A DNA stretch of 64,000 bases from Microgenomates group bacterium (lineage in GTDB: Bacteria; Patescibacteriota; Microgenomatia; UBA1406; GWC2-37-13), in contig JBAQNR010000007.1 in the NCBI GenBank assembly GCA_049304035.1, positions 4,548 to 68,547 on the forward strand, in the 5' to 3' direction. The notes beneath the pieces are model-generated. The model ran no database searches. It had not been told where the DNA came from and saw only the letters and a program-made list of their open reading frames with translations. How positions within the stretch are numbered: position 1 is the first letter of the stretch; the number at the start of each line of letters is the position of its first letter. Both the position numbers and the translations under genes were made by a program. This document shows, piece by piece, positions 3,137 to 36,256 of this stretch.

Positions 3137-3553
3137 TTATTCTCCTTTGATATTGTTTTCTAAATCTCGAATATTTACACGACACATATAAATTTCTTCA
3201 TCGTCCCATTTGCCACGACATTTAAATTGAATATCCCCATCTTTTTCAACAAGCACAGTGTAACATTCCAGATATTCTTGTTCCTCTAATTCTTCGTTAA
3301 ACTCTCCGTCAACCCATTCAATTTCTTCTTGTAAATTATCCTCAATCCATTCGTTATAAGCAATCCAAATTCCACCGCCAAAATAATATTTTGCGCTGAT
3401 AAAATCCGCGTCATATATTGCGGAAACATCAGATATATGATGCTTCAACTCATTGATTACTTCTCGTGTGATTTCCAAAACAAAACGACTTGGGGAATAT
3501 TCCTCTCCCCTATCTTCATTATTATAATATGCCTTTGCGACTAAATATGTCAT
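3137..3553 (-). CDS. hypothetical acidic protein (138 aa)
   Basis: track ORF; GGAGAT SD. Confidence 0.65.
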   Translation of the reverse strand: MTYLVAKAYYNNEDRGEEYSPSRFVLEITREVINELKHHISDVSAIYDADFISAKYYFGGGIWIAYNEWIEDNLQEEIEWVDGEFNEELEEQEYLECYTVLVEKDGDIQFKCRGKWDDEEIYMCRVNIRDLENNIKGE

Positions 3554-3816
3554 TCAGAATCTCCTTTTGAACCATATTGTTCTTCCATCAATTTATTGAA
3601 AGCATCAAAAATCATTCCATAAATCATTCCGCTTTCAATTGTCATAACATCAATAAAATGTTCCAGCGCTTTCAAATGATTGGAACCGGTTGAAGAAGAT
3701 TTAATCCATCCAAAATCTTCGTCTAAACACTTCTTCATCTCTCTTTTTGCAATTTCCAAATTGGGCTCATGATATGCTTTCATAAAATCTTTGCGTACTT
3801 CACTTACGGTTTTCAT
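3550..3816 (-). CDS. hypothetical protein (88 aa)
   Basis: track ORF; GGAGAAAA SD; ATGA overlap with next gene. Confidence 0.65.
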   Translation of the reverse strand: MKTVSEVRKDFMKAYHEPNLEIAKREMKKCLDEDFGWIKSSSTGSNHLKALEHFIDVMTIESGMIYGMIFDAFNKLMEEQYGSKGDSE

Positions 3817-4021
3817 TTATTTTCTCCTTATATTCTTCGTATTCTGTCTCAGAGTACATCAGTTGATAAACCGGCGTACCAAAAGCATTTTCAAACCAGT
3901 GCCATATCTCATATTTATTTGTTCCTATTTCAAAATGAAGAAACCGTATCTCTATACATTCATCGTCGTCAATGGGAACATCACCAAGAACATTCCACAA
4001 ATCCTTCACAGTAAAAATCAT
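3800..4021 (-). CDS. hypothetical protein (73 aa)
   Basis: track ORF trimmed to ATG 4021 with AAAGGAGAA SD. Confidence 0.6.
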   Translation of the reverse strand: MIFTVKDLWNVLGDVPIDDDECIEIRFLHFEIGTNKYEIWHWFENAFGTPVYQLMYSETEYEEYKEKINENRK

Positions 4022-4022
4022 C

Positions 4023-4187
4023 TTATTCTCCTTTTTGTTTCCAGTGAACATATTCAAAATTTAAATTTATCCAAAAAATAGAAAATCCCGTATGTGAATT
4101 GTAGTTGTCTCCATAGTGATATAAATCAAGAAACTCTCTAACAATTTTGATAGTCAAAACCCATCTTCTTCCTTGAATAAGAACCAT
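4023..4187 (-). CDS. small hypothetical protein (54 aa)
   Basis: ATG 4187 with GGAGGAAAA SD; fills a gap; below track cutoff. Confidence 0.45.
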   Translation of the reverse strand: MVLIQGRRWVLTIKIVREFLDLYHYGDNYNSHTGFSIFWINLNFEYVHWKQKGE

Positions 4188-4229
4188 TTTTCCTCCAAAA
4201 ATGTGAATAAAATCTCAGTTTTATCAATA

Positions 4230-4505
4230 CTATTTCTCGAATGTCATTCCTTGATAGTTTGTCACGATTGTGTAAACATATGAAAAATCCTCAACAACCA
4301 TGATTTCAATTCCAGAATCTTTCAACATTTCTTCAATGTAATGTTGAACATCATCTCTACATTCTGAAAGCAAAGAAAATTCGAATCCACAATCCCTTTC
4401 TTCAGATAGATAATATTCAAACATAATGCGCCTTGTACGCATGTTAATCCTGATGCGTATGGGAGTTTCCACCTCGTCATATTCACAATCAATAATGAAG
4501 TCCAT
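4230..4505 (-). CDS. hypothetical protein (91 aa)
   Basis: track ORF trimmed to ATG 4505 with AAAGGAGAAAA SD. Confidence 0.6.
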   Translation of the reverse strand: MDFIIDCEYDEVETPIRIRINMRTRRIMFEYYLSEERDCGFEFSLLSECRDDVQHYIEEMLKDSGIEIMVVEDFSYVYTIVTNYQGMTFEK

Positions 4506-4530
4506 TTTATTTTTTCTCCTTTTTATGATT

Positions 4531-4588
4531 ATAATCTTACCACGAATATCCACAATCGTCAAATTGTGGATACATAAGAAGATTATAT
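4531..4588 (-). promoter_or_regulatory. PeSL-like class I: stem-loop with -35 in loop plus extended -10 promoter
   Basis: minus strand TTGACG (4562-4557), 17 nt, TGgTAAGAT (-10 at 4539-4534); 9-bp arms 4548-4556/4563-4571. Confidence 0.7.
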
Positions 4589-5586
4589 CAGTCTATCCAA
4601 AATGTGTGGCAATGGGGACAATGCGTTCCACATGGAAACTCATTCAGATAATACGTATTTCTGTGTCTCCGCATATCCATATCCATTGGAGTACACCCAC
4701 CTTTTTCAAATGTTTCCTTATATCTTTTTTCTCTTGCTAATTCTTCCGCATAAGATTCATTTACCTTTGCCTTTTTTGCTGACGTTTTCTTTTTTCTAAA
4801 AGAAATTCCCGTTCCATCACACCAGTTTGTGGACATTCCACAAACTTCATACGTGTATGAATACTTCACTTCCTTATCGATAAAAAAGTTCTTAATCTCA
4901 AACGGAATTGCAAACTTATGCCCAACCAACTGGCAATTGTCACCCGCCCCATTCCAAGTGTCAATAATTGCAATATTTGGATTTGTAAATTCAACAACAT
5001 TCTTATCAGACAAATGCATCATCTCATTAATGTCACCGGTAAAATAAATCACCAATCTTCCGTTGTCACCTTGACGAATCATCATGTCAATGTCATTATC
5101 CCATTTTGTTTCTTTCAGCGGGATTTTTAATGCTTTCTTGATTTGTTTGCACATTTTATCAACTTCGTCTTGGTCTGATAAGCATCCGTCATAAAATTCT
5201 TCGCCAGTATCATAAAACATTACAATATCCCTTGTGTTTCTGATTAAATCTTTTATTGGGTCGGACTCGTCCCTATCCATAATAACATCCCGAAGATTTT
5301 CCCAGTGTTCTTCCATTAACTCTTCCGCTTCTTCTTCGGTTATGTCGAATTCTTTTTCAATTTCGTCCTTCAATTCTTTTGCAATAAAATCTAAACTATC
5401 GCATTGACATTCCCAAAACCAATCATCGCAATTTTGGTCAATATGACACCAGTCTTGTGTTCTTATTGCTTCCGCGACACTTTCCAGACTATCATCTAAA
5501 TTGCTTCGATAATCAACATAAATCAAATCATAAGACTTATTCAACAATTTTTCAATATCTTCGTAAGTAATTTCCTTAGTTTCCAT
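4588..5586 (-). CDS. hypothetical protein (332 aa), C-terminal CxxC/HCxHC cluster
   Basis: track ORF trimmed to ATG 5586 with AAAGGAGAT SD; no family recognised. Confidence 0.7.
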   Translation of the reverse strand: METKEITYEDIEKLLNKSYDLIYVDYRSNLDDSLESVAEAIRTQDWCHIDQNCDDWFWECQCDSLDFIAKELKDEIEKEFDITEEEAEELMEEHWENLRDVIMDRDESDPIKDLIRNTRDIVMFYDTGEEFYDGCLSDQDEVDKMCKQIKKALKIPLKETKWDNDIDMMIRQGDNGRLVIYFTGDINEMMHLSDKNVVEFTNPNIAIIDTWNGAGDNCQLVGHKFAIPFEIKNFFIDKEVKYSYTYEVCGMSTNWCDGTGISFRKKKTSAKKAKVNESYAEELAREKRYKETFEKGGCTPMDMDMRRHRNTYYLNEFPCGTHCPHCHTFWID

Positions 5587-6956: not shown

Positions 6957-7289
6957 TTATTTTGCTTCAATAAAAAATCTCGCCCCATCATATTTAATTT
7001 TGTTCCACCACGTCCAAGTATTATTTCTTTTATAAGAGTATTCGTTGTTTTTTAGCCAATCTTCAAATTCATCGAAATGAGCGCTGTGTTGGTCAGAATT
7101 TCCCAGTATTGGAAACAATGAAACATCATAGCAGTCATATACGCCATTATAAGAAACGGAGAACTCCTTTCTTTCCCCGTGCCACGTTCCAAGATAAACA
7201 TTGTCGTGATTTAATCCAGCAAACAACAACTCTTCAATACTCCAATATTCTGGCTCATCCTTTTTCATCTTACACAATACGAGTTTCAT
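6957..7289 (-). CDS. hypothetical protein (110 aa)
   Basis: track ORF; AAGGAGAAAA SD. Confidence 0.6.
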   Translation of the reverse strand: MKLVLCKMKKDEPEYWSIEELLFAGLNHDNVYLGTWHGERKEFSVSYNGVYDCYDVSLFPILGNSDQHSAHFDEFEDWLKNNEYSYKRNNTWTWWNKIKYDGARFFIEAK

Positions 7290-7304
7290 TTTTTTCTCCT
7301 TATA

Positions 7305-7328
7305 TGAATAAAAGCGTCATTTTATTTA
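7305..7328. repeat. AT-palindrome family copy
   Basis: tgaataaaagcgtcattttattta; loop similar to copies at 7751 and 7941. Confidence 0.6.
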
Positions 7329-7735
7329 GAAATATCGACAAGTGCTTTCTGATACTTTTTAATTAGTTGTGTCTTGTTTCCGAGAATACTTTCTTTTAGG
7401 TTACAAATTATGTCGCATATCTTTATAACTTTCGCAACGCTGTGTCTGGAAACTCTTGATATATATTCATCATAAGTTTCTGTTTCATAATGGGTTAGCG
7501 CATGAACATTGTCTCCAACAAAATTCCCAAAATAGTGGCTGATTTCAGCCCATCCCGTTTCTGTGTCCTCAACAACATCGTGCAATATTGCTATAATTTG
7601 ATAATATTCATCATATCCCAATTCTGAAACAAGATTTGAAACTTGTTCAAGATGATAAAAATACGGTTTATTTCCATACATTTGTTTTCCGTGTTTGTTT
7701 TTTGCGAAATATTTTGCCTCATCGAGTAATTTCAT
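7322..7735 (-). CDS. HD-domain phosphohydrolase, SpoT/RelA-hydrolase-like (small alarmone hydrolase candidate)
   Basis: KHGKQMYGNKPYFYHLEQV ... IAILHDVVEDT matches the (p)ppGpp hydrolase HD signature; 137 aa single domain. Confidence 0.7.
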   Translation of the reverse strand: MKLLDEAKYFAKNKHGKQMYGNKPYFYHLEQVSNLVSELGYDEYYQIIAILHDVVEDTETGWAEISHYFGNFVGDNVHALTHYETETYDEYISRVSRHSVAKVIKICDIICNLKESILGNKTQLIKKYQKALVDISK

Positions 7736-7750
7736 TTTTAATCTCCTTTA

Positions 7751-7776
7751 TGAATAAAATAGCGTCATTTTATTCG
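7751..7776. repeat. AT-palindrome family copy (perfect 9-bp arms)
   Basis: gaataaaat-agcgtc-attttattc. Confidence 0.7.
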
Positions 7777-7925
7777 ATTGTGTGAGTCTCAATATAATAA
7801 TGGTTATGCTCATTTTCATATTGTTCCGACAATTGATTTTTTATAGAAATTGCATCATCTTCCTTTTCAAAAACTCCAATAACACTAGTGTATTCTGAAT
7901 CTTCAAATAAAATATGTACTTCCAT
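7770..7925 (-). CDS. small hypothetical protein (51 aa)
   Basis: ATG 7925 with AAAGGAGAT SD; stop lies inside the palindrome; below track cutoff. Confidence 0.45.
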   Translation of the reverse strand: MEVHILFEDSEYTSVIGVFEKEDDAISIKNQLSEQYENEHNHYYIETHTIE

Positions 7926-7940
7926 TTTAATCTCCTTTTA

Positions 7941-7964
7941 TGAATAAAATAGTGTTTTTATTCA
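7941..7964. repeat. AT-palindrome family copy (perfect 9-bp arms)
   Basis: tgaataaaa-tagtgt-ttttattca. Confidence 0.7.
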
Positions 7965-8062
7965 TTCTCTTTGAATTCAGACCTATTCTTGGGCTCAAAA
8001 ATATCATCCCTGACCAGTCCTTTCCTGAAAAGAAAATCAATTATAAAAGACCATAGTTTCAT
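7958..8062 (-). CDS. 34-aa ORF translationally coupled to the radical SAM gene
   Basis: ATGA overlap with radical SAM stop (8062-8059); MKLWSFIIDFLFRKGLVRDDIFEPKNRSEFKENE; no SD of its own. Confidence 0.35.
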   Translation of the reverse strand: MKLWSFIIDFLFRKGLVRDDIFEPKNRSEFKENE

Positions 8063-9030
8063 TTTCTTTTTTCCTCCACCATATTATTATAATCCACGAG
8101 ACAATCTAAACAATTTTGTTTGCAAATTGGGTCGAGATGGGTATCGTGATTTTCACTCCAAATTTTTCTTTGTTCCAACATATTTTCATCAACTCTACCA
8201 ATTGGTTCGCCGCCCTCTCTCATGTGAATAACGCAAGGAAAATGCCAACTTCCGGCGACAACCGAATCATCTACAACCAAGTGACATTTTCTTGTATCAT
8301 TATCAGAAATTCCCCTAACATTTTTTCCAGATAGAAGATTTTTAACTCGATATTTCAAAATCGGATGTGCTTCTAAAATATAATCTGGAATTAATTCCAA
8401 CTTTGATAATGCACCATTGTATTGTGCCGCAGTAATAATCCGAATATCCGAAACTCCCAAATCGTGTGCGAATTTTACCACATCAACAACGGTTGATTGT
8501 GTTTCGTCCGTTAAAACAATTCCAACTGTTACATATGTTTCTTTTGAAAGCCATTCGATATTTGACGCAACTCTTTCAAAAATTCCTTTTCTACCACCGG
8601 ACATTTTTTCCGCATCTTCGGCACAACAGGCATCCAAACTAATTGAAAAATCATTTACGCCAGCGTCCAAAAGATTTCGGTACATTTTTTCTGGCATAGA
8701 ACCATTTGAGGAAATCGCAATTCTTTTTATTCCACCTTCTTTTGCAATTTTCACAAACTCAACAACATTTGGGTGCATTGTTGGCTCACCACCAGAGAAA
8801 CGAATGTTTTTCAATCCGCTTGAAATCCAACTATTCAAAACAGATTTCACAATATCTGGATGTAAATGTCCAGAACAATCCCTGCTGTATGCTTTTACTC
8901 CACGACAATATGGACATTTATAGTTGCACATTTCCGTAATAATAATTTCGCAACGTTCCATATTGAAGTGTTCTTTTATTGCTCTTTCGTCTGTCAATGT
9001 ATAAAATCCAATGTTAGATACCGAAGACAT
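8059..9030 (-). CDS. radical SAM enzyme (MoaA/viperin-like core, Cys-rich C-terminus), substrate unknown
   Basis: CNYKCPYC (CxxxCxxC), FSGGEPT, ISSNGS motifs; C-terminal CKQNCLDC; trimmed to ATG 9030 with AAAGGAG SD. Confidence 0.8.
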   Translation of the reverse strand: MSSVSNIGFYTLTDERAIKEHFNMERCEIIITEMCNYKCPYCRGVKAYSRDCSGHLHPDIVKSVLNSWISSGLKNIRFSGGEPTMHPNVVEFVKIAKEGGIKRIAISSNGSMPEKMYRNLLDAGVNDFSISLDACCAEDAEKMSGGRKGIFERVASNIEWLSKETYVTVGIVLTDETQSTVVDVVKFAHDLGVSDIRIITAAQYNGALSKLELIPDYILEAHPILKYRVKNLLSGKNVRGISDNDTRKCHLVVDDSVVAGSWHFPCVIHMREGGEPIGRVDENMLEQRKIWSENHDTHLDPICKQNCLDCLVDYNNMVEEKRK

Positions 9031-9292
9031 TTTCAAACTCCTTTTTTCTGAAATGTGTCCAACAAAACTCATTATCAATTATACACATTACTGCTACTTC
9101 GTTATTTTTTGGTCTACAAAACAATCTTCCTCCTTCACAATATCCAATGGCATATTTTCGTAAAACATTTGAATTTCTGATTATTTCAACTTCCCTACAT
9201 GCAACCCCTATTTCCCTCCATATTTTCAATCCCTGTCTCCACCTAGACCAATCGAAACTATCTGGTGGTATTTTCGGTATATAGTATTTCAT
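9014..9292 (-). CDS. hypothetical protein (92 aa)
   Basis: track ORF trimmed to ATG 9292 with CAGGAGAA SD; overlaps radical SAM start. Confidence 0.55.
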   Translation of the reverse strand: MKYYIPKIPPDSFDWSRWRQGLKIWREIGVACREVEIIRNSNVLRKYAIGYCEGGRLFCRPKNNEVAVMCIIDNEFCWTHFRKKEFENVFGI

Positions 9293-9310
9293 TGAATTCT
9301 CCTGTTTCAT

Positions 9311-9365
9311 TTATAATTCCATGATTGCACATAAAAATTCTCTTATGTGCAAATAGGACTATAAA
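9311..9365 (-). promoter_or_regulatory. PeSL-like class II stem-loop plus TGn -10-like box
   Basis: 10-bp perfect arms 9325-9334/9343-9352; on the minus strand followed by TCATGGAATTATAAA. Confidence 0.55.
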
Positions 9366-9656
9366 CTATTCTGGATGAAAGTCCGACATTGACATATCCA
9401 GAGTAAATCTTCCATCATATTCCATATTTAAAAATTTAGACACATTTTCTGGAAAATCATCGGTATGTAAGTTCACATGTTTTTTATTTTCTTCTTTATA
9501 ATATATCGCACCCCACCCTCCTCCCACTTGCATGTGAATTTTATTTTTTTGAAAATATGGTTTTACATATTCCTCAAAAACATCGTTGGCAATATCTTCA
9601 ATTTTCTGAAGATAATTATCTCTTGCGTTTTCTATTTCCAATTCTATGTCTCTCAT
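9366..9656 (-). CDS. hypothetical protein (96 aa)
   Basis: track ORF; GAGGAAAA SD. Confidence 0.6.
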   Translation of the reverse strand: MRDIELEIENARDNYLQKIEDIANDVFEEYVKPYFQKNKIHMQVGGGWGAIYYKEENKKHVNLHTDDFPENVSKFLNMEYDGRFTLDMSMSDFHPE

Positions 9657-9664
9657 TTTTCCTC

Positions 9665-10198
9665 TTAATAATCCTGATACAAATCACGAAGTTTTTCCAA
9701 CCCCCCACTTCCAACGACTCGAAGTAGTTTCAATCCAATTTCACGACACTCATTAAAGATTTTTTCTGCTTTCCTAGAATCTTCCTCATATCCATAATTT
9801 CCACACCAATCTTCAAAATCGCATTCAACTGCATCTGAATCCAATGTCAGAGAATACATAACATCTACAATATCGGGTAGAATTGGTTTCTTTTTATTCG
9901 GAAGAAAATATCCACTTGAGAAAGTCCCCTTAGATTCGAATCCACTCTCACATTCTTGTAAAACCGCCTGTCTTTCATCATAAGATTGTTTGAACGCTCT
10001 TTTATACGAGGGGCAATGACCAGAACCCATTCCGTAATCCGTAGTCAAAAATTCTTTTCCGCGAATTAAAAGTGTTACCTTATAATTCAATGATGGATAC
10101 TTTTCTCCAGCATTTCGAGATAAACTCCATGGAACAAATTTTGTTGTCATGGACAATCCCATTTCGTCCAAAACGTTCCTAATCTCATCTTTTTCCAT
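9665..10198 (-). CDS. hypothetical protein (177 aa)
   Basis: track ORF; AGGAGAATAA SD. Confidence 0.65.
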   Translation of the reverse strand: MEKDEIRNVLDEMGLSMTTKFVPWSLSRNAGEKYPSLNYKVTLLIRGKEFLTTDYGMGSGHCPSYKRAFKQSYDERQAVLQECESGFESKGTFSSGYFLPNKKKPILPDIVDVMYSLTLDSDAVECDFEDWCGNYGYEEDSRKAEKIFNECREIGLKLLRVVGSGGLEKLRDLYQDY

Positions 10199-10208
10199 TT
10201 TTATTCTC

Positions 10209-10583
10209 CTATATTGTTTTTCCAGATTCCAATATTTCCCTAGTTTTTGCGGTTATCGGTGTTAATTCTATGTTTAAATAATCTCCACAAATTCTTTTTA
10301 CATCGCCCGGGGTTATTGTGTGAACTTCTGTTTCAAATTCATAGCAAGGATTCCCATGCTTATCGTCATAAATTCTTACGGAAACAGGAGTGTGTTTTGT
10401 AGAAATTGCATCGGCAAGGAGTGTTAGTATTCCAATCATTTCCAATTTTGAACTGCAAATAACTCGAAATTCACTTCCTTGCCACATCAACCACTGAAAA
10501 CAAACAGTGTGTGATTTGTGGTCGGGTGAATAATTACTATAAACCCATGTAAAATGTTTTCCATATGGACTTTTATATAACAT
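10209..10583 (-). CDS. hypothetical protein (124 aa)
   Basis: track ORF; AAGGAGAAAAC SD. Confidence 0.65.
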   Translation of the reverse strand: MLYKSPYGKHFTWVYSNYSPDHKSHTVCFQWLMWQGSEFRVICSSKLEMIGILTLLADAISTKHTPVSVRIYDDKHGNPCYEFETEVHTITPGDVKRICGDYLNIELTPITAKTREILESGKTI

Positions 10584-33616: not shown

Positions 33617-36256
33617 TTGCGGAAACTACAGCAGTTTTATATCATGTCGTTGCAATCTGCAAGAATCAAGAAGGTTGGAAAAATAGTTTCAACACTTCAA
33701 GATGCGAGAAAAAATAACGAGATTATTTCTGCGGGCGACTCCCAGTTATTTCGGACGTTGAGAAAGGTGTCTAATCACCCCTATGAGGAATCCGAACTGT
33801 TGCGGTTGTGGAATGAAAGAACAAGATTAAAGAAAAAGAAAAACAAAAAAGAGAACGTAAGCAGGATGTCCGAACTTACCTCAAAGATTGACGAGATGTT
33901 ATTTGTTCCAGAGATTGTTTCCATAACCTTCAATCACGTTGCACACTACAAGCAATTTGTGAAAGAGGGCGTGTGGATAAATGGAACAAAATTTGTCCGA
34001 TTTATGGGTAGTGCGGGGCAATTGAGGCGTTCAACCGTCCTTTTTATTCAAGAACAATATTTGGAAAAGGTAAGAGAGATTATCGAGAACGGGTTCAATA
34101 AAGAGGTTCCAGTAAATTTTGGGAAGTTCAATGCGTACTACTCGCTGGTTTCAAGCAGTAGTATTCCTGTCTCGACGCCCAACTACGTTGTCATTCCAGA
34201 TTTGGAAGAAACAAGAGATACTGAGGTTGACTTTGTTGAAGACGACAATGAAACAGTAAACAGAAAAGTTCTTCCCATCGTTCACAATCTTTTTGATGGT
34301 GCTGGAATTATCTCCATGGATTTTGCAAAGCAATGGAGTTTCGATTTAGGATTGGATTATGATGCGTGTTCTTTTATTTTCAGGGCTCCTTGGTGCAAGG
34401 GTCTGTTGACTTCGTTTCCTTTTAGGACACTTGCTGCTGAACTCGGAGTTTCAGAGATTACCGATATTTATGGGGATGTTCACCAGATAGACAACGTTGA
34501 TGTTGTTATGACAAAATCCCAGTTTAAACTGAGTGAGGGGTATTCTTCTATTGCTGAACACAAAACAAACTCCCTAGAGAACAATCTATCTTGGAACGTT
34601 ACAAGAGTCAATCCGAATAAAGACAAAAAATCTTTTATGAGTTCCTACCAGTATATTCAGGTTCTCAAGGATGACGTAGATATAGAAAAACTATGCCGAC
34701 CAACATTGGACTACTTCAATGATGTGTCAATTTTGGACGGAGAAAAAGCGCTAATCTATTTGATGGGTTCTGATATAGAAGACGACTTGAAGTTCAACAA
34801 AATAGAAAATCCGATAGTGAAAGCGCTGTGTTTGAACAAAGATGTGATTCAAGACCCCCACATTAGAAAATCGATTATAAAAAGTCTCAACAGAAAGATA
34901 CGAGATAGTTACTTCGGAAAACTCCTGATAAGCCCAGGAAATTATCAGTTTGTTTTGTTTGACCCCTATGCGATAGCGCAACACGCCTTCGGGTTCGAGG
35001 CAACTGGTCTTTTGGGTGCAGGAGAGCATTATTCACAATACTGGAATAACATGGGCTCAAATCAGGTTGTTGCAGGCAGAAGTCCTTTGACATGGCGCTC
35101 AGAGATGTTGAGGTTGGACTTCAAGAACAACCAGAAGATGGAGAAATATTTTGGGCATCTGTATAGTGGAATAGTGTTTAATGTTCATTCGCCAGATATG
35201 ATGTGCCTTGCGGACGGAGATGGGGACGGAGACGCAGTATTCACATCCGATAATGACGAATTGTTGAAGAACTGTTATGGCGGGGTTCCTGTGACATACA
35301 ACAGAAAGGCGACAACAAAGAATAAAATTTCATACGATGAGTTGTCGGTTTTTGATGCAATGAGTTTTAATTCAAAGATTGGTCTGGTAACGAACAACAG
35401 TAGCACATACTATTCCATGTTGTCTTTATTTCCAGAAGATTCCAAAGAACACCAACTAATTCTAAAGAGACTTGTTATTTGCAGAAAGCAACAGGGAATG
35501 GAAATCGATAAAACAAAAGGTCTTCTTATCGACAGACTCCCAGAATGGAATAAGAAATCAGACGACCCAGTTCACAACAACATCCTGACAAATCGAAGAC
35601 CAATGTGGATGAACTGGCTCTACCCCCATAGAAAGAAAGATTACGACTCCTATAATGAAATGTACGATGTTTATTGCTACGCCAAATACGGGTTCGGTAT
35701 AGACTTTTTATTGAAGAAGGAAGTCGTCACAGAAGAGCAATCAAAAATTATAGAAAGACATAGGAAGTTTTGTCCAGTGGTTGTTGGTTCAACCTCTATA
35801 ATGCAGAGGATTTCAGATTACATGGTTTCAGAGGTAAAAGAACTTAAGGTGTCGGTAAACAACAAAGAATTTGACTATTCGGTATATTTCGATAAATCGG
35901 TTGGTCTAAACGAATCTATTCGTGAACCGCTAAGAGACTTGATGAAATTATATAATAAGTTGAAAAAGAACCTGTTCTTCTCTCCAGACGGAGAAAAATC
36001 GGAAATCGTAGAGTTCATAAAGAACAAGGCTTTTGAAATAAGTTCAGACTTGTCCGAATTGACCAATATGGCTCTGGATATAAACTATGGAACGGGATAC
36101 TCTCAGTCATTCGTGTGGGAAATATTTTCCGATGGAATATTGGACGCCATGAAAAAGAAAACCAGGACTTTTGATTTTCCTGTCCCAAAGGAAAACGGAA
36201 GGATTTCGTTTGCCGGAAGAAGGTTCAACATGGTAAAAGGTGGTGTCGATGAGTAA
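33617..36256 (+). CDS. YonO/RdRP-like two-barrel single-subunit RNA polymerase
   Basis: FIFRAPWCKGLL (compare FQIRxxGxKGvv of DPBB1 in cellular RdRPs) and VVAGRSPLTWRSE...IVFNVHSPDMMCLADGDGDGDAVFTS (compare RxPxxxxGD...DxDGD catalytic loop, related to beta-prime NADFDGD); AGGAGG SD 10 nt before TTG 33617. Confidence 0.7.
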   Translation: MRKLQQFYIMSLQSARIKKVGKIVSTLQDARKNNEIISAGDSQLFRTLRKVSNHPYEESELLRLWNERTRLKKKKNKKENVSRMSELTSKIDEMLFVPEIVSITFNHVAHYKQFVKEGVWINGTKFVRFMGSAGQLRRSTVLFIQEQYLEKVREIIENGFNKEVPVNFGKFNAYYSLVSSSSIPVSTPNYVVIPDLEETRDTEVDFVEDDNETVNRKVLPIVHNLFDGAGIISMDFAKQWSFDLGLDYDACSFIFRAPWCKGLLTSFPFRTLAAELGVSEITDIYGDVHQIDNVDVVMTKSQFKLSEGYSSIAEHKTNSLENNLSWNVTRVNPNKDKKSFMSSYQYIQVLKDDVDIEKLCRPTLDYFNDVSILDGEKALIYLMGSDIEDDLKFNKIENPIVKALCLNKDVIQDPHIRKSIIKSLNRKIRDSYFGKLLISPGNYQFVLFDPYAIAQHAFGFEATGLLGAGEHYSQYWNNMGSNQVVAGRSPLTWRSEMLRLDFKNNQKMEKYFGHLYSGIVFNVHSPDMMCLADGDGDGDAVFTSDNDELLKNCYGGVPVTYNRKATTKNKISYDELSVFDAMSFNSKIGLVTNNSSTYYSMLSLFPEDSKEHQLILKRLVICRKQQGMEIDKTKGLLIDRLPEWNKKSDDPVHNNILTNRRPMWMNWLYPHRKKDYDSYNEMYDVYCYAKYGFGIDFLLKKEVVTEEQSKIIERHRKFCPVVVGSTSIMQRISDYMVSEVKELKVSVNNKEFDYSVYFDKSVGLNESIREPLRDLMKLYNKLKKNLFFSPDGEKSEIVEFIKNKAFEISSDLSELTNMALDINYGTGYSQSFVWEIFSDGILDAMKKKTRTFDFPVPKENGRISFAGRRFNMVKGGVDE

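Follow-up and report, generated by a model that had tools for sequence, protein, structure and literature searches.

Introduction

The closest structural matches of the enzyme described here are radical S-adenosylmethionine (SAM) proteins whose substrates are nucleosides, nucleotides or nucleotide-sugars, or in which a Twitch or SPASM domain is present. The SPASM domain is a seven-cysteine motif that holds two auxiliary clusters, and the Twitch domain is a truncated version of this fold, composed of a beta-hairpin and a helix, that holds one auxiliary [4Fe-4S] cluster. DesII, a thymidine diphosphate (TDP)-sugar deaminase/dehydrogenase, acts on a nucleotide-linked sugar. To our knowledge neither DesII nor the cytosylglucuronate decarboxylase BlsE depends on an auxiliary cluster, and we likewise know of no auxiliary cysteine domain in the viperins. 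BlsE acts on a sugar that is linked to a nucleoside (PMC3715490). Viral genes annotated as “moaA” have been listed as auxiliary metabolic genes in viromics (PMC12032784, PMC12647753). Here we analyze a radical SAM enzyme of 323 residues and a partner protein of 92 residues that are encoded next to each other on the minus strand of a 64,000-nucleotide stretch (the window, to which coordinates refer unless another locus is named) of contig JBAQNR010000007.1, a sequence deposited under the name Microgenomates group bacterium (assembly GCA_049304035.1).

The enzyme belongs to a new radical SAM family that is restricted to phages and that is not MoaA, viperin, NrdG, QueE or a maturase of ribosomally synthesized and post-translationally modified peptides (RiPPs). 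The 92-residue protein is a genuine companion of this enzyme and the two form one unit. We provide a description of both proteins, of their distribution and of the genes that recur around them, and we weigh the reactions in which the unit could be involved.

A phage-restricted family of radical SAM enzymes

The enzyme is encoded at positions 8059 to 9030 of the minus strand, with a stop codon at 8061-8059 and an ATG at 9030 that has AAGGAG 7 nt to its 5' side. A longer version with a TTG start at 9078 was offered by the open reading frame (ORF) lister, but ATG 9030 is taken as the start because the N-termini of homologs and the deposited 323-residue protein MFZ2992435.1 agree on it. The conserved partner is encoded on the same strand at 9014 to 9292 (ATG at 9292, TAA at 9016-9014) with AGGAG 7 nt 5' of its ATG; an alternative ATG at 9310 would give a protein of 98 residues. 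The 3' end of the partner gene overlaps the start of the enzyme gene by 17 nt. A third ORF of 34 codons (7958 to 8062, minus strand) overlaps the enzyme stop codon as ATGA and is probably not a conserved gene. A preliminary description of this DNA had reported these three ORFs and their overlaps, together with the enzyme motifs CNYKCPYC, FSGGEPT, ISSNGS, WHFPCV and CKQNCLDC, and all of them are present as described. It had also called the product a radical SAM enzyme with a cysteine-bearing C-terminal extension, and this identification is borne out by a score to Pfam PF04055 (radical SAM) that is far beyond chance (86.5 bits, the cut-off being 29.5). PF04055 and PF13353 are the only Pfam domains found in the protein.

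Assignment to a described family fails at every curated NCBIfam cut-off, and the high-scoring models cover the shared N-terminal core only. The best-scoring curated family for this core is MoaA, represented by TIGR02666 (91.3 bits against an equivalog cut-off of 284.05, residues 29-203 only), NF001199 (75.6 against 231) and an archaeal MoaA model (80 against 325). Viperin model NF038283 gives 52.1 bits against 180 over residues 31-144 only, and the PADLOC pVip model gives 60.7 bits in the N-terminal half only. The likeness of the core to MoaA and viperin that had been pointed out earlier is real and is limited to the core, at scores well under the cut-offs. The enzyme also lies outside the housekeeping families that the preliminary description had named: NrdG2 (TIGR02495) scores 52 bits against 131.15, while QueE is represented by one weak partial match to PHROG 2076 (27.7 bits, residues 33-146) and is outside the 25 best NCBIfam families. 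The BlsE model of NCBIfam gives 56.6 bits against 400, and NF033640, a Twitch/SPASM-type model, gives 35.7 bits against 170. There is no match to the SPASM domain (PF13186) at E <=1, and the conserved C-terminal cysteines number four to five. Additionally, a PqqD-like RiPP recognition element (RRE) was detected by Pfam in neither the enzyme nor the partner, and the enzyme has about 25 residues before its first core strand.

Homologs are numerous. At least 120 among the matches listed are full length or of similar size and 54-100% identical to the enzyme, and the family comprises at least several hundred distinct sequences that are all more than about 45% identical. Many members have been named “MoaA” by the Joint Genome Institute (JGI), a label that is unsupported by the curated MoaA model. 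Our search of the literature on phage radical SAM proteins, huge and jumbo phages and anti-defense systems found no paper on this family.

The family is almost confined to large uncultured phages. Among 50,697 records of GenBank phages, only three metagenomic huge-phage records carry the enzyme (a 735-kb phage that is listed twice and a 485-kb phage); neither megablast of window positions 7000-10500 nor tblastn of the partner found a match among the GenBank phages. IMG/VR contributed 237 enzyme matches, and the 80 that were examined lie on contigs of 5-545 kb. In GTDB (185,579 species genomes) full-length members are found only on about 26 contigs of metagenome-assembled genomes (MAGs) with an incoherent taxonomy that includes Omnitrophota, Methanothrix, Pacearchaeota, Bacillota, Chloroflexi and others. 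We regard these MAGs as mis-binned. The enzyme is missing from isolates in GTDB as well as from cultured phages, and the next GTDB matches are partial and 25-31% identical. Carriers are contigs of 5 to 735 kb with very different GC content. The enzyme is strongly conserved throughout these phages, which implies that it has an important and probably universal target. Its neighbors in relatives are phage-like and include Thy1, DNA ligase, RuvB, ParB, HNH and RtcB. The exact enzyme and partner have been deposited as MFZ2992435.1 and MFZ2992436.1 on a 130,778-bp contig of a “Microgenomates group bacterium” MAG. The gene content of the window is itself phage-like, with a polymerase of RNA-dependent RNA polymerase (RdRP) fold, a Big_2 protein, a DEAD helicase and small ORFs in extended series. 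Most likely the source contig either is a phage that was mis-binned into a genome of the candidate phyla radiation (CPR) or comes from a CPR phage.

Invariant residues and predicted fold

An alignment of 60 sequences has invariant residues C35, C39 and C42, the GGEP motif, C135-C136, and C249, C266, C303 and C307. The first three cysteines constitute the CX3CX2C motif (8905 to 8928, minus strand) and, by their sequence pattern, coordinate the [4Fe-4S] cluster that binds SAM. The vicinal pair Cys135-Cys136 occurs within SLDACC (8623 to 8628, minus strand), is invariant in two homolog alignments and may have a hydrogen-atom or redox role in the active site. The remaining four invariant cysteines all lie within the C-terminal 75 residues and, together with a further cysteine at 310/311 (C310 in the enzyme), define a C-terminal region (8101 to 8286, minus strand) that is a candidate Twitch-like auxiliary [4Fe-4S] site. 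Seven arginines (R16, R26, R77, R197, R228, R239 and R271) are also invariant in the 60 sequences.

The AlphaFold2 (AF2) model of the enzyme has a pLDDT of 90 and forms a partial barrel like those of MoaA, BlsE and DesII. In the model, C249 and C266 lie on either side of a beta-hairpin (E255-259/E262-264) and C303 and C307 lie amid helices, a cysteine layout that resembles what would be expected of a single-cluster Twitch auxiliary site. Foldseek returned BlsE as the best match (7vob, E 4.4e-14, TM 0.67, 333 columns), followed by DesII (8hzv, E 3e-11), SkfB, MoaA (E 5e-10), SuiB, PqqE, viperin and anSME, with SpeY also among the matches. BlsE is the best PDB match by sequence as well (E 1.4e-10), and identity to BlsE and DesII is 17-20%.

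MoaA has in common with the enzyme the CX3CX2C motif, the GGEP motif, the SLD-type strands, a C-terminal cysteine-bearing domain and an arginine that immediately precedes the first strand; this arginine is R26 in the enzyme and, as judged from sequence, may correspond to MoaA R17. However, the CX2CX13C pattern of MoaA is replaced by C249...C266...C303-x3-C307, the score is one third of the MoaA cut-off, the invariant Cys135-Cys136 pair is specific to the enzyme family and the distribution is phage-only. Furthermore, no gene for MoaB, MoaC, MoaD, MoaE or another molybdenum cofactor function is present in 12 called gene contexts or in the recurrent neighbor clusters of 99 loci. BlsE and DesII are the best whole-chain structural matches, but the enzyme family differs from them in keeping its four invariant C-terminal cysteines. 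The predicted order in the enzyme of a cysteine, a beta-hairpin, a cysteine and then helices with two more cysteines resembles the single-cluster arrangement of Twitch enzymes such as BtrN, and the Twitch enzymes SkfB and SpeY are fold matches, yet the enzyme has no significant match to a Twitch or SPASM model. Viperin and pVip have similar core motifs, weak N-terminal model matches, fold matches at a TM of about 0.5 and a setting of virus-host conflict. In contrast to them, the enzyme gene is viral and not a host gene, and its C-terminal domain is distinct and cysteine-rich.

A co-conserved partner protein

The 17-nt overlap between partner and enzyme is also present in two related loci, L003 and L007, in which the enzymes are 73% and 69% identical to that of the window, respectively. 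In the more distant members L016, L017 and L018 the partner is located immediately downstream of the enzyme. The partner occurs in the flanks of 26 of 105 non-redundant enzyme loci and is on the same strand in every one of these. Its family amounts to about 180 clusters at 90% identity in a profile search and to 280 clusters at 50% identity in an exhaustive HMMER search. In two independent searches, 17 pairs of enzyme and partner turned up for which the longest contigs have identical lengths, many of these being just 1.4-4 kb. The partner is in addition found fused to the C-terminus of the enzyme in P0082, P0272 and P0349, in the fragments P0343 and P0371, and in L119, a contig binned as Dehalococcoidia. 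Two further loci (L039 and P0304) have the partner fused to a sulfotransferase-like protein of about 195 residues. Loci without the partner have tightly coupled neighbors that are mutually unrelated, and no alternative, non-homologous partner was found in them.

The partner has no match in Pfam, NCBIfam, PHROG or PADLOC. Its AF2 model (pLDDT 92) consists of helices followed by a three-stranded sheet and a C-terminal helix, and Foldseek found no match for it in the PDB (best E 0.16) or in BFVD (best E 0.29). The partner is thus a confidently predicted small fold without a match among solved or viral structures. Residues F13, W18, A48, G50, W78, H80 and E85 are invariant and a loop with R60-P61 is near-invariant. 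Two resemblances of the partner were considered and rejected. A likeness to the alpha-beta3-alpha fold of SRP9/14 was not significant. A role as a glycyl-radical spare part, which the invariant YAIG(Y/W) motif had suggested, was dismissed as there is no match to Pfam Gly_radical, and hhalign of the partner profile with a hand-entered GrcA sequence gave a probability of 0.1%.

Genes that recur near the enzyme

Recurrent neighbors were counted in flanks of about 6 kb around the 105 non-redundant enzyme loci. A minimal GGDEF protein of about 140 residues that has kept the RY[AG]GDEF motif (PF00990, 47 bits) is encoded downstream in 18 of the 105 loci, and in loci with both genes it directly follows the partner. 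The 735-kb phage (LR756501, locus L001, positions 3506-4972) has a 488-residue ORF whose C-terminal portion is the radical SAM domain. The N-terminal 159 residues of this ORF form a degenerate GGDEF-like domain (SGDEL) that is unsupported by Pfam and supported by a family hidden Markov model and by jackhmmer convergence. Since jackhmmer started from these 159 residues converges on the GGDEF set, we conclude that this phage carries a fusion of a degenerate GGDEF domain to the enzyme. A GT4-type glycosyltransferase (PF00534) occurs in 12 loci and often adjoins the enzyme. The protein of about 195 residues is present in five loci; its profile weakly matches sulfotransferases (SULT1C3 with E 0.008, Teg12 and Teg14) with the motifs of the phosphoadenosine phosphosulfate (PAPS) loop aligned. 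GGDEF, HD_4, GT4 and sulfotransferase-like proteins all use nucleotides or nucleotide-activated groups. RNA-repair genes are found near the enzyme as well, namely RtcB (nine loci), RNA ligase (five) and a 2H-phosphoesterase-like protein (five, by sub-threshold Pfam matches only).

The window carries two of these genes, the partner and HD_4; no GGDEF, sulfotransferase-like, GT4, RtcB, RNA-ligase or 2H gene is present in its 64 kb. HD_4 is a SpoT/RelA-type HD hydrolase-like protein of 137 residues (7322 to 7735, minus strand; PF13328, 34.5 bits against a cut-off of 27.2) encoded two genes downstream of the enzyme. Homologs of it recur in the L003-L006 group, and in the distant locus L093 one of them immediately follows the enzyme. 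As these are just three non-redundant loci, the link to HD_4 is tentative.

Several individual loci have notable gene arrangements. A four-gene module of radical SAM enzyme, sulfotransferase-like protein of about 195 residues, partner and minimal GGDEF protein is found in L035 (727-2936), L039 (26-2415), L026, L027 and L030. Near the enzyme in L012 and L013 are genes for a GT1 glycosyltransferase, a nucleoside hydrolase and a CMP-sugar-type cytidylyltransferase, and L018 has a GT2 gene and three nucleoside diphosphate (NDP)-sugar epimerase/dehydratase genes on the opposite strand. The homolog of the 485-kb phage (LR745208, locus L002, positions 3767-4825) is 58% identical over residues 72-320 and has an unrelated N-terminus. 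There is no credible CX3CX2C motif within 4 kb on either side, the sole pattern match being spurious and off-frame. This homolog may be a cluster-less pseudo-radical-SAM protein or an assembly artefact; a GT4-like gene directly follows it.

Proposed function of the two-protein unit

We propose, with about even confidence, that the enzyme and its partner of about 90 residues and unrecognized fold constitute a two-protein phage unit that acts on a nucleotide-type substrate and that does not include the 34-codon ORF. According to this model, the partner would dock on the C-terminal cysteine domain as an accessory or specificity subunit, and the cysteines of this domain would hold a Twitch-type auxiliary [4Fe-4S] cluster. 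The 5'-deoxyadenosyl radical would then take a hydrogen atom from a small anionic substrate, for which a nucleotide, a guanine nucleotide or a nucleotide-sugar appears most likely. As in MoaA, this substrate may be held by the auxiliary cluster together with the numerous invariant arginines, and Cys135/136 may give back a hydrogen atom. The product could serve the phage while it infects anaerobic hosts, either through changes to nucleotide pools or signals or through modification of a nucleic acid or glycan. A small nucleotide-type substrate is favored because the closest folds have nucleosides, nucleotides or nucleotide-sugars as substrates, the core is most like MoaA, the many invariant arginines suit an anionic ligand and the products of the linked genes use nucleotides or nucleotide-activated groups. 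A role of the partner as a subunit is favored because fusions are typical of subunits and because most family members are without a partner nearby, the latter also indicating that the partner is not an obligate substrate.

A number of observations weigh against this proposal. Each of its mechanistic steps is inferred, and the putative auxiliary site is predicted from cysteine spacing and modeled secondary structure. More than half of the loci (59 of 105) are without any recurrent accessory gene within about 6 kb; the accessory associations are therefore facultative and may reflect shared genome neighborhoods. The nucleotide theme is moreover borrowed from relatives, since the window is without a GGDEF, glycosyltransferase or sulfotransferase-like gene. 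RNA-repair genes are about equally frequent nearby and would fit an RNA substrate equally well. Lastly, the partner could be a substrate instead of an accessory subunit.

A more elaborate version of this proposal, to which we give a low probability, is that of a phage nucleotide-chemistry module. This module would consist of the radical SAM enzyme, the 90-residue new-fold adaptor and often a minimal GGDEF and a sulfotransferase-like protein, and would make or rewrite a molecule derived from a guanine nucleotide that large phages of anaerobes use for host control or immune evasion. Candidates for this molecule are a modified second messenger, a decoy and a chain terminator, and the module would be a viral counterpart of the chemistry of host viperin or of CBASS-type systems.

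Alternative explanations differ in how they treat the partner and the substrate. The 92-residue protein could itself be the substrate, with the enzyme installing a crosslink, an epimerization or a methylation at the YAIG(Y/W) strand or the CRPK loop so that the modified protein is the functional species. Tight adjacency and co-conservation of the two genes, the invariant and near-invariant residues of the partner, and the presence of the peptide- or protein-acting enzymes SkfB, SuiB and anSME among the fold matches would all agree with this. However, about 75% of non-redundant enzyme loci have no partner nearby, which means that the enzyme must act on something else. The partner is also compact and confidently folded rather than a leader-core peptide, it is fused to the enzyme or to a sulfotransferase-like protein in a manner typical of subunits and not of turnover substrates, its profile is unlike that of glycyl-radical GrcA, and the enzyme is without an RRE or SPASM domain; we regard a substrate role as unlikely. 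It is also rather improbable that the enzyme modifies a nucleic acid, be it phage DNA in a hypermodification pathway or a tRNA or rRNA of host or phage, with the partner as binding adaptor and the GT4 and sulfotransferase-like proteins decorating the base. The RNA-repair genes within 6 kb, the GT4-like gene directly after the enzyme in several loci, the fit of seven invariant arginines to a polyanionic substrate and the position of the enzyme amid replication and nucleotide genes (Thy1, ligase, RuvB, ParB) would be explained by such an activity, but RlmN/Cfr, MiaB and QueE are outside the top matches, TYW1 is seen as a weak and partial match only, neither a transglycosylase nor a DNA-binding domain recurs among the linked genes, and the partner matches no nucleic-acid-binding fold significantly (best E again 0.16). 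We consider it quite improbable that the enzyme makes a chain-terminating dehydro-nucleotide in the manner of viperin, or that it is MoaA itself, encoded as an auxiliary metabolic gene for the supply of molybdenum cofactor. The MoaA and viperin scores of its core, the JGI names and the viral “moaA” genes of viromics point in this direction, and one may speculate that the RdRP-fold polymerase candidate of the window could tolerate a terminator. Against this, the scores are far under the cut-offs and come from the shared core, the MoaA cysteine pattern is replaced, genes for MoaB to MoaE are missing from every neighborhood examined, and the enzyme has a candidate auxiliary cysteine domain of a kind that viperins are not known to have.

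The preliminary description had treated the 92-residue ORF as incidental and had likened the enzyme and the 34-codon ORF (8062-7958) to a RiPP maturase and its precursor. Of the two small ORFs that it had seen as coupled to the enzyme, the longer has turned out to be a co-conserved and sometimes fused partner, whereas the shorter is not conserved. Pairs such as SkfB/SkfA, SuiB/SuiA and PqqE/PqqA do resemble this locus in that a radical SAM gene lies beside small ORFs and in that such maturases (SkfB, SuiB) are among the fold matches, and the ATGA in which stop and start overlap, as well as a GGAGG located 10 nt 5' of the ATG, fit a coupled precursor; because of this GGAGG, translation of the 34-codon ORF in this one phage is possible. 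The enzyme differs from the maturases of these pairs in having no RRE, no SPASM domain and no conserved short precursor, its conserved small neighbor being instead a folded and fusible domain of 90 residues. No gene caller predicted the 34-codon ORF. In L003 the next gene begins 32 nt past the enzyme stop without an overlapping ORF, and L007 has a gap of 121 nt past the enzyme stop with no equivalent of it. A tblastn search of the peptide against 180 related or candidate loci found no similarity (best E 1.8), and its exact sequence is absent from about 15 billion predicted proteins. A pair of near-identical Logan contigs breaks off before the enzyme stop and is uninformative on this ORF. Most ORFs of such length are spurious in the AT-rich window (36% GC), which has 539 ORFs of at least 34 residues compared with about 151 in a non-overlapping set, and a small ORF overlaps the stop of 2 of the 84 longer ORFs of the window. 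In related loci, 103 of 157 same-strand neighbors of the enzyme are within 25 nt or overlap it, and almost all are mutually unrelated. Since close or overlapping neighbors are this common yet unrelated to each other, the overlap alone carries little information. The 34-codon ORF is indistinguishable from chance and lies outside the enzyme/partner unit, and with this lack of co-conservation, which the preliminary description had itself named as refuting it, the RiPP pairing retains hardly any probability. The modification of nucleotides that it had offered as an alternative is the reading favored here.

The two-protein unit has implications for how viral genes are annotated. Under their “MoaA” pipeline labels, members of the family could be miscounted as auxiliary metabolic genes for molybdenum cofactor or folate. 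The enzyme is not MoaA, and the reading of such viral genes in viromics would change as a result. The recurrent fusions of a GGDEF-like domain to the enzyme, of the enzyme to the partner and of the sulfotransferase-like protein to the partner define a testable multi-protein system. Elucidation of its reaction could bring to light radical chemistry of a new kind as well as a new means of host manipulation by large phages.

Additional features of the window

No RNA family was found by Rfam in the 64-kb window, and the 133-nt gap 3' of the enzyme has no promoter-like or terminator-like site wholly inside it. A 51-residue ORF at 7770-7925 (minus strand) has a good Shine-Dalgarno sequence and weak matches to DUF7204 and DUF7336, both of which are families of small phage proteins; a DUF7336 gene is also located upstream of the enzyme in L007. 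An 879-residue ORF at 33617-36256 (plus strand) matches the Pfam RdRP family PF05183 with 58.5 bits over residues 108-648 and is a candidate two-barrel phage RNA polymerase of the YonO/crAss type. This ORF opens a block of plus-strand genes that follows a long minus-strand block of small genes.

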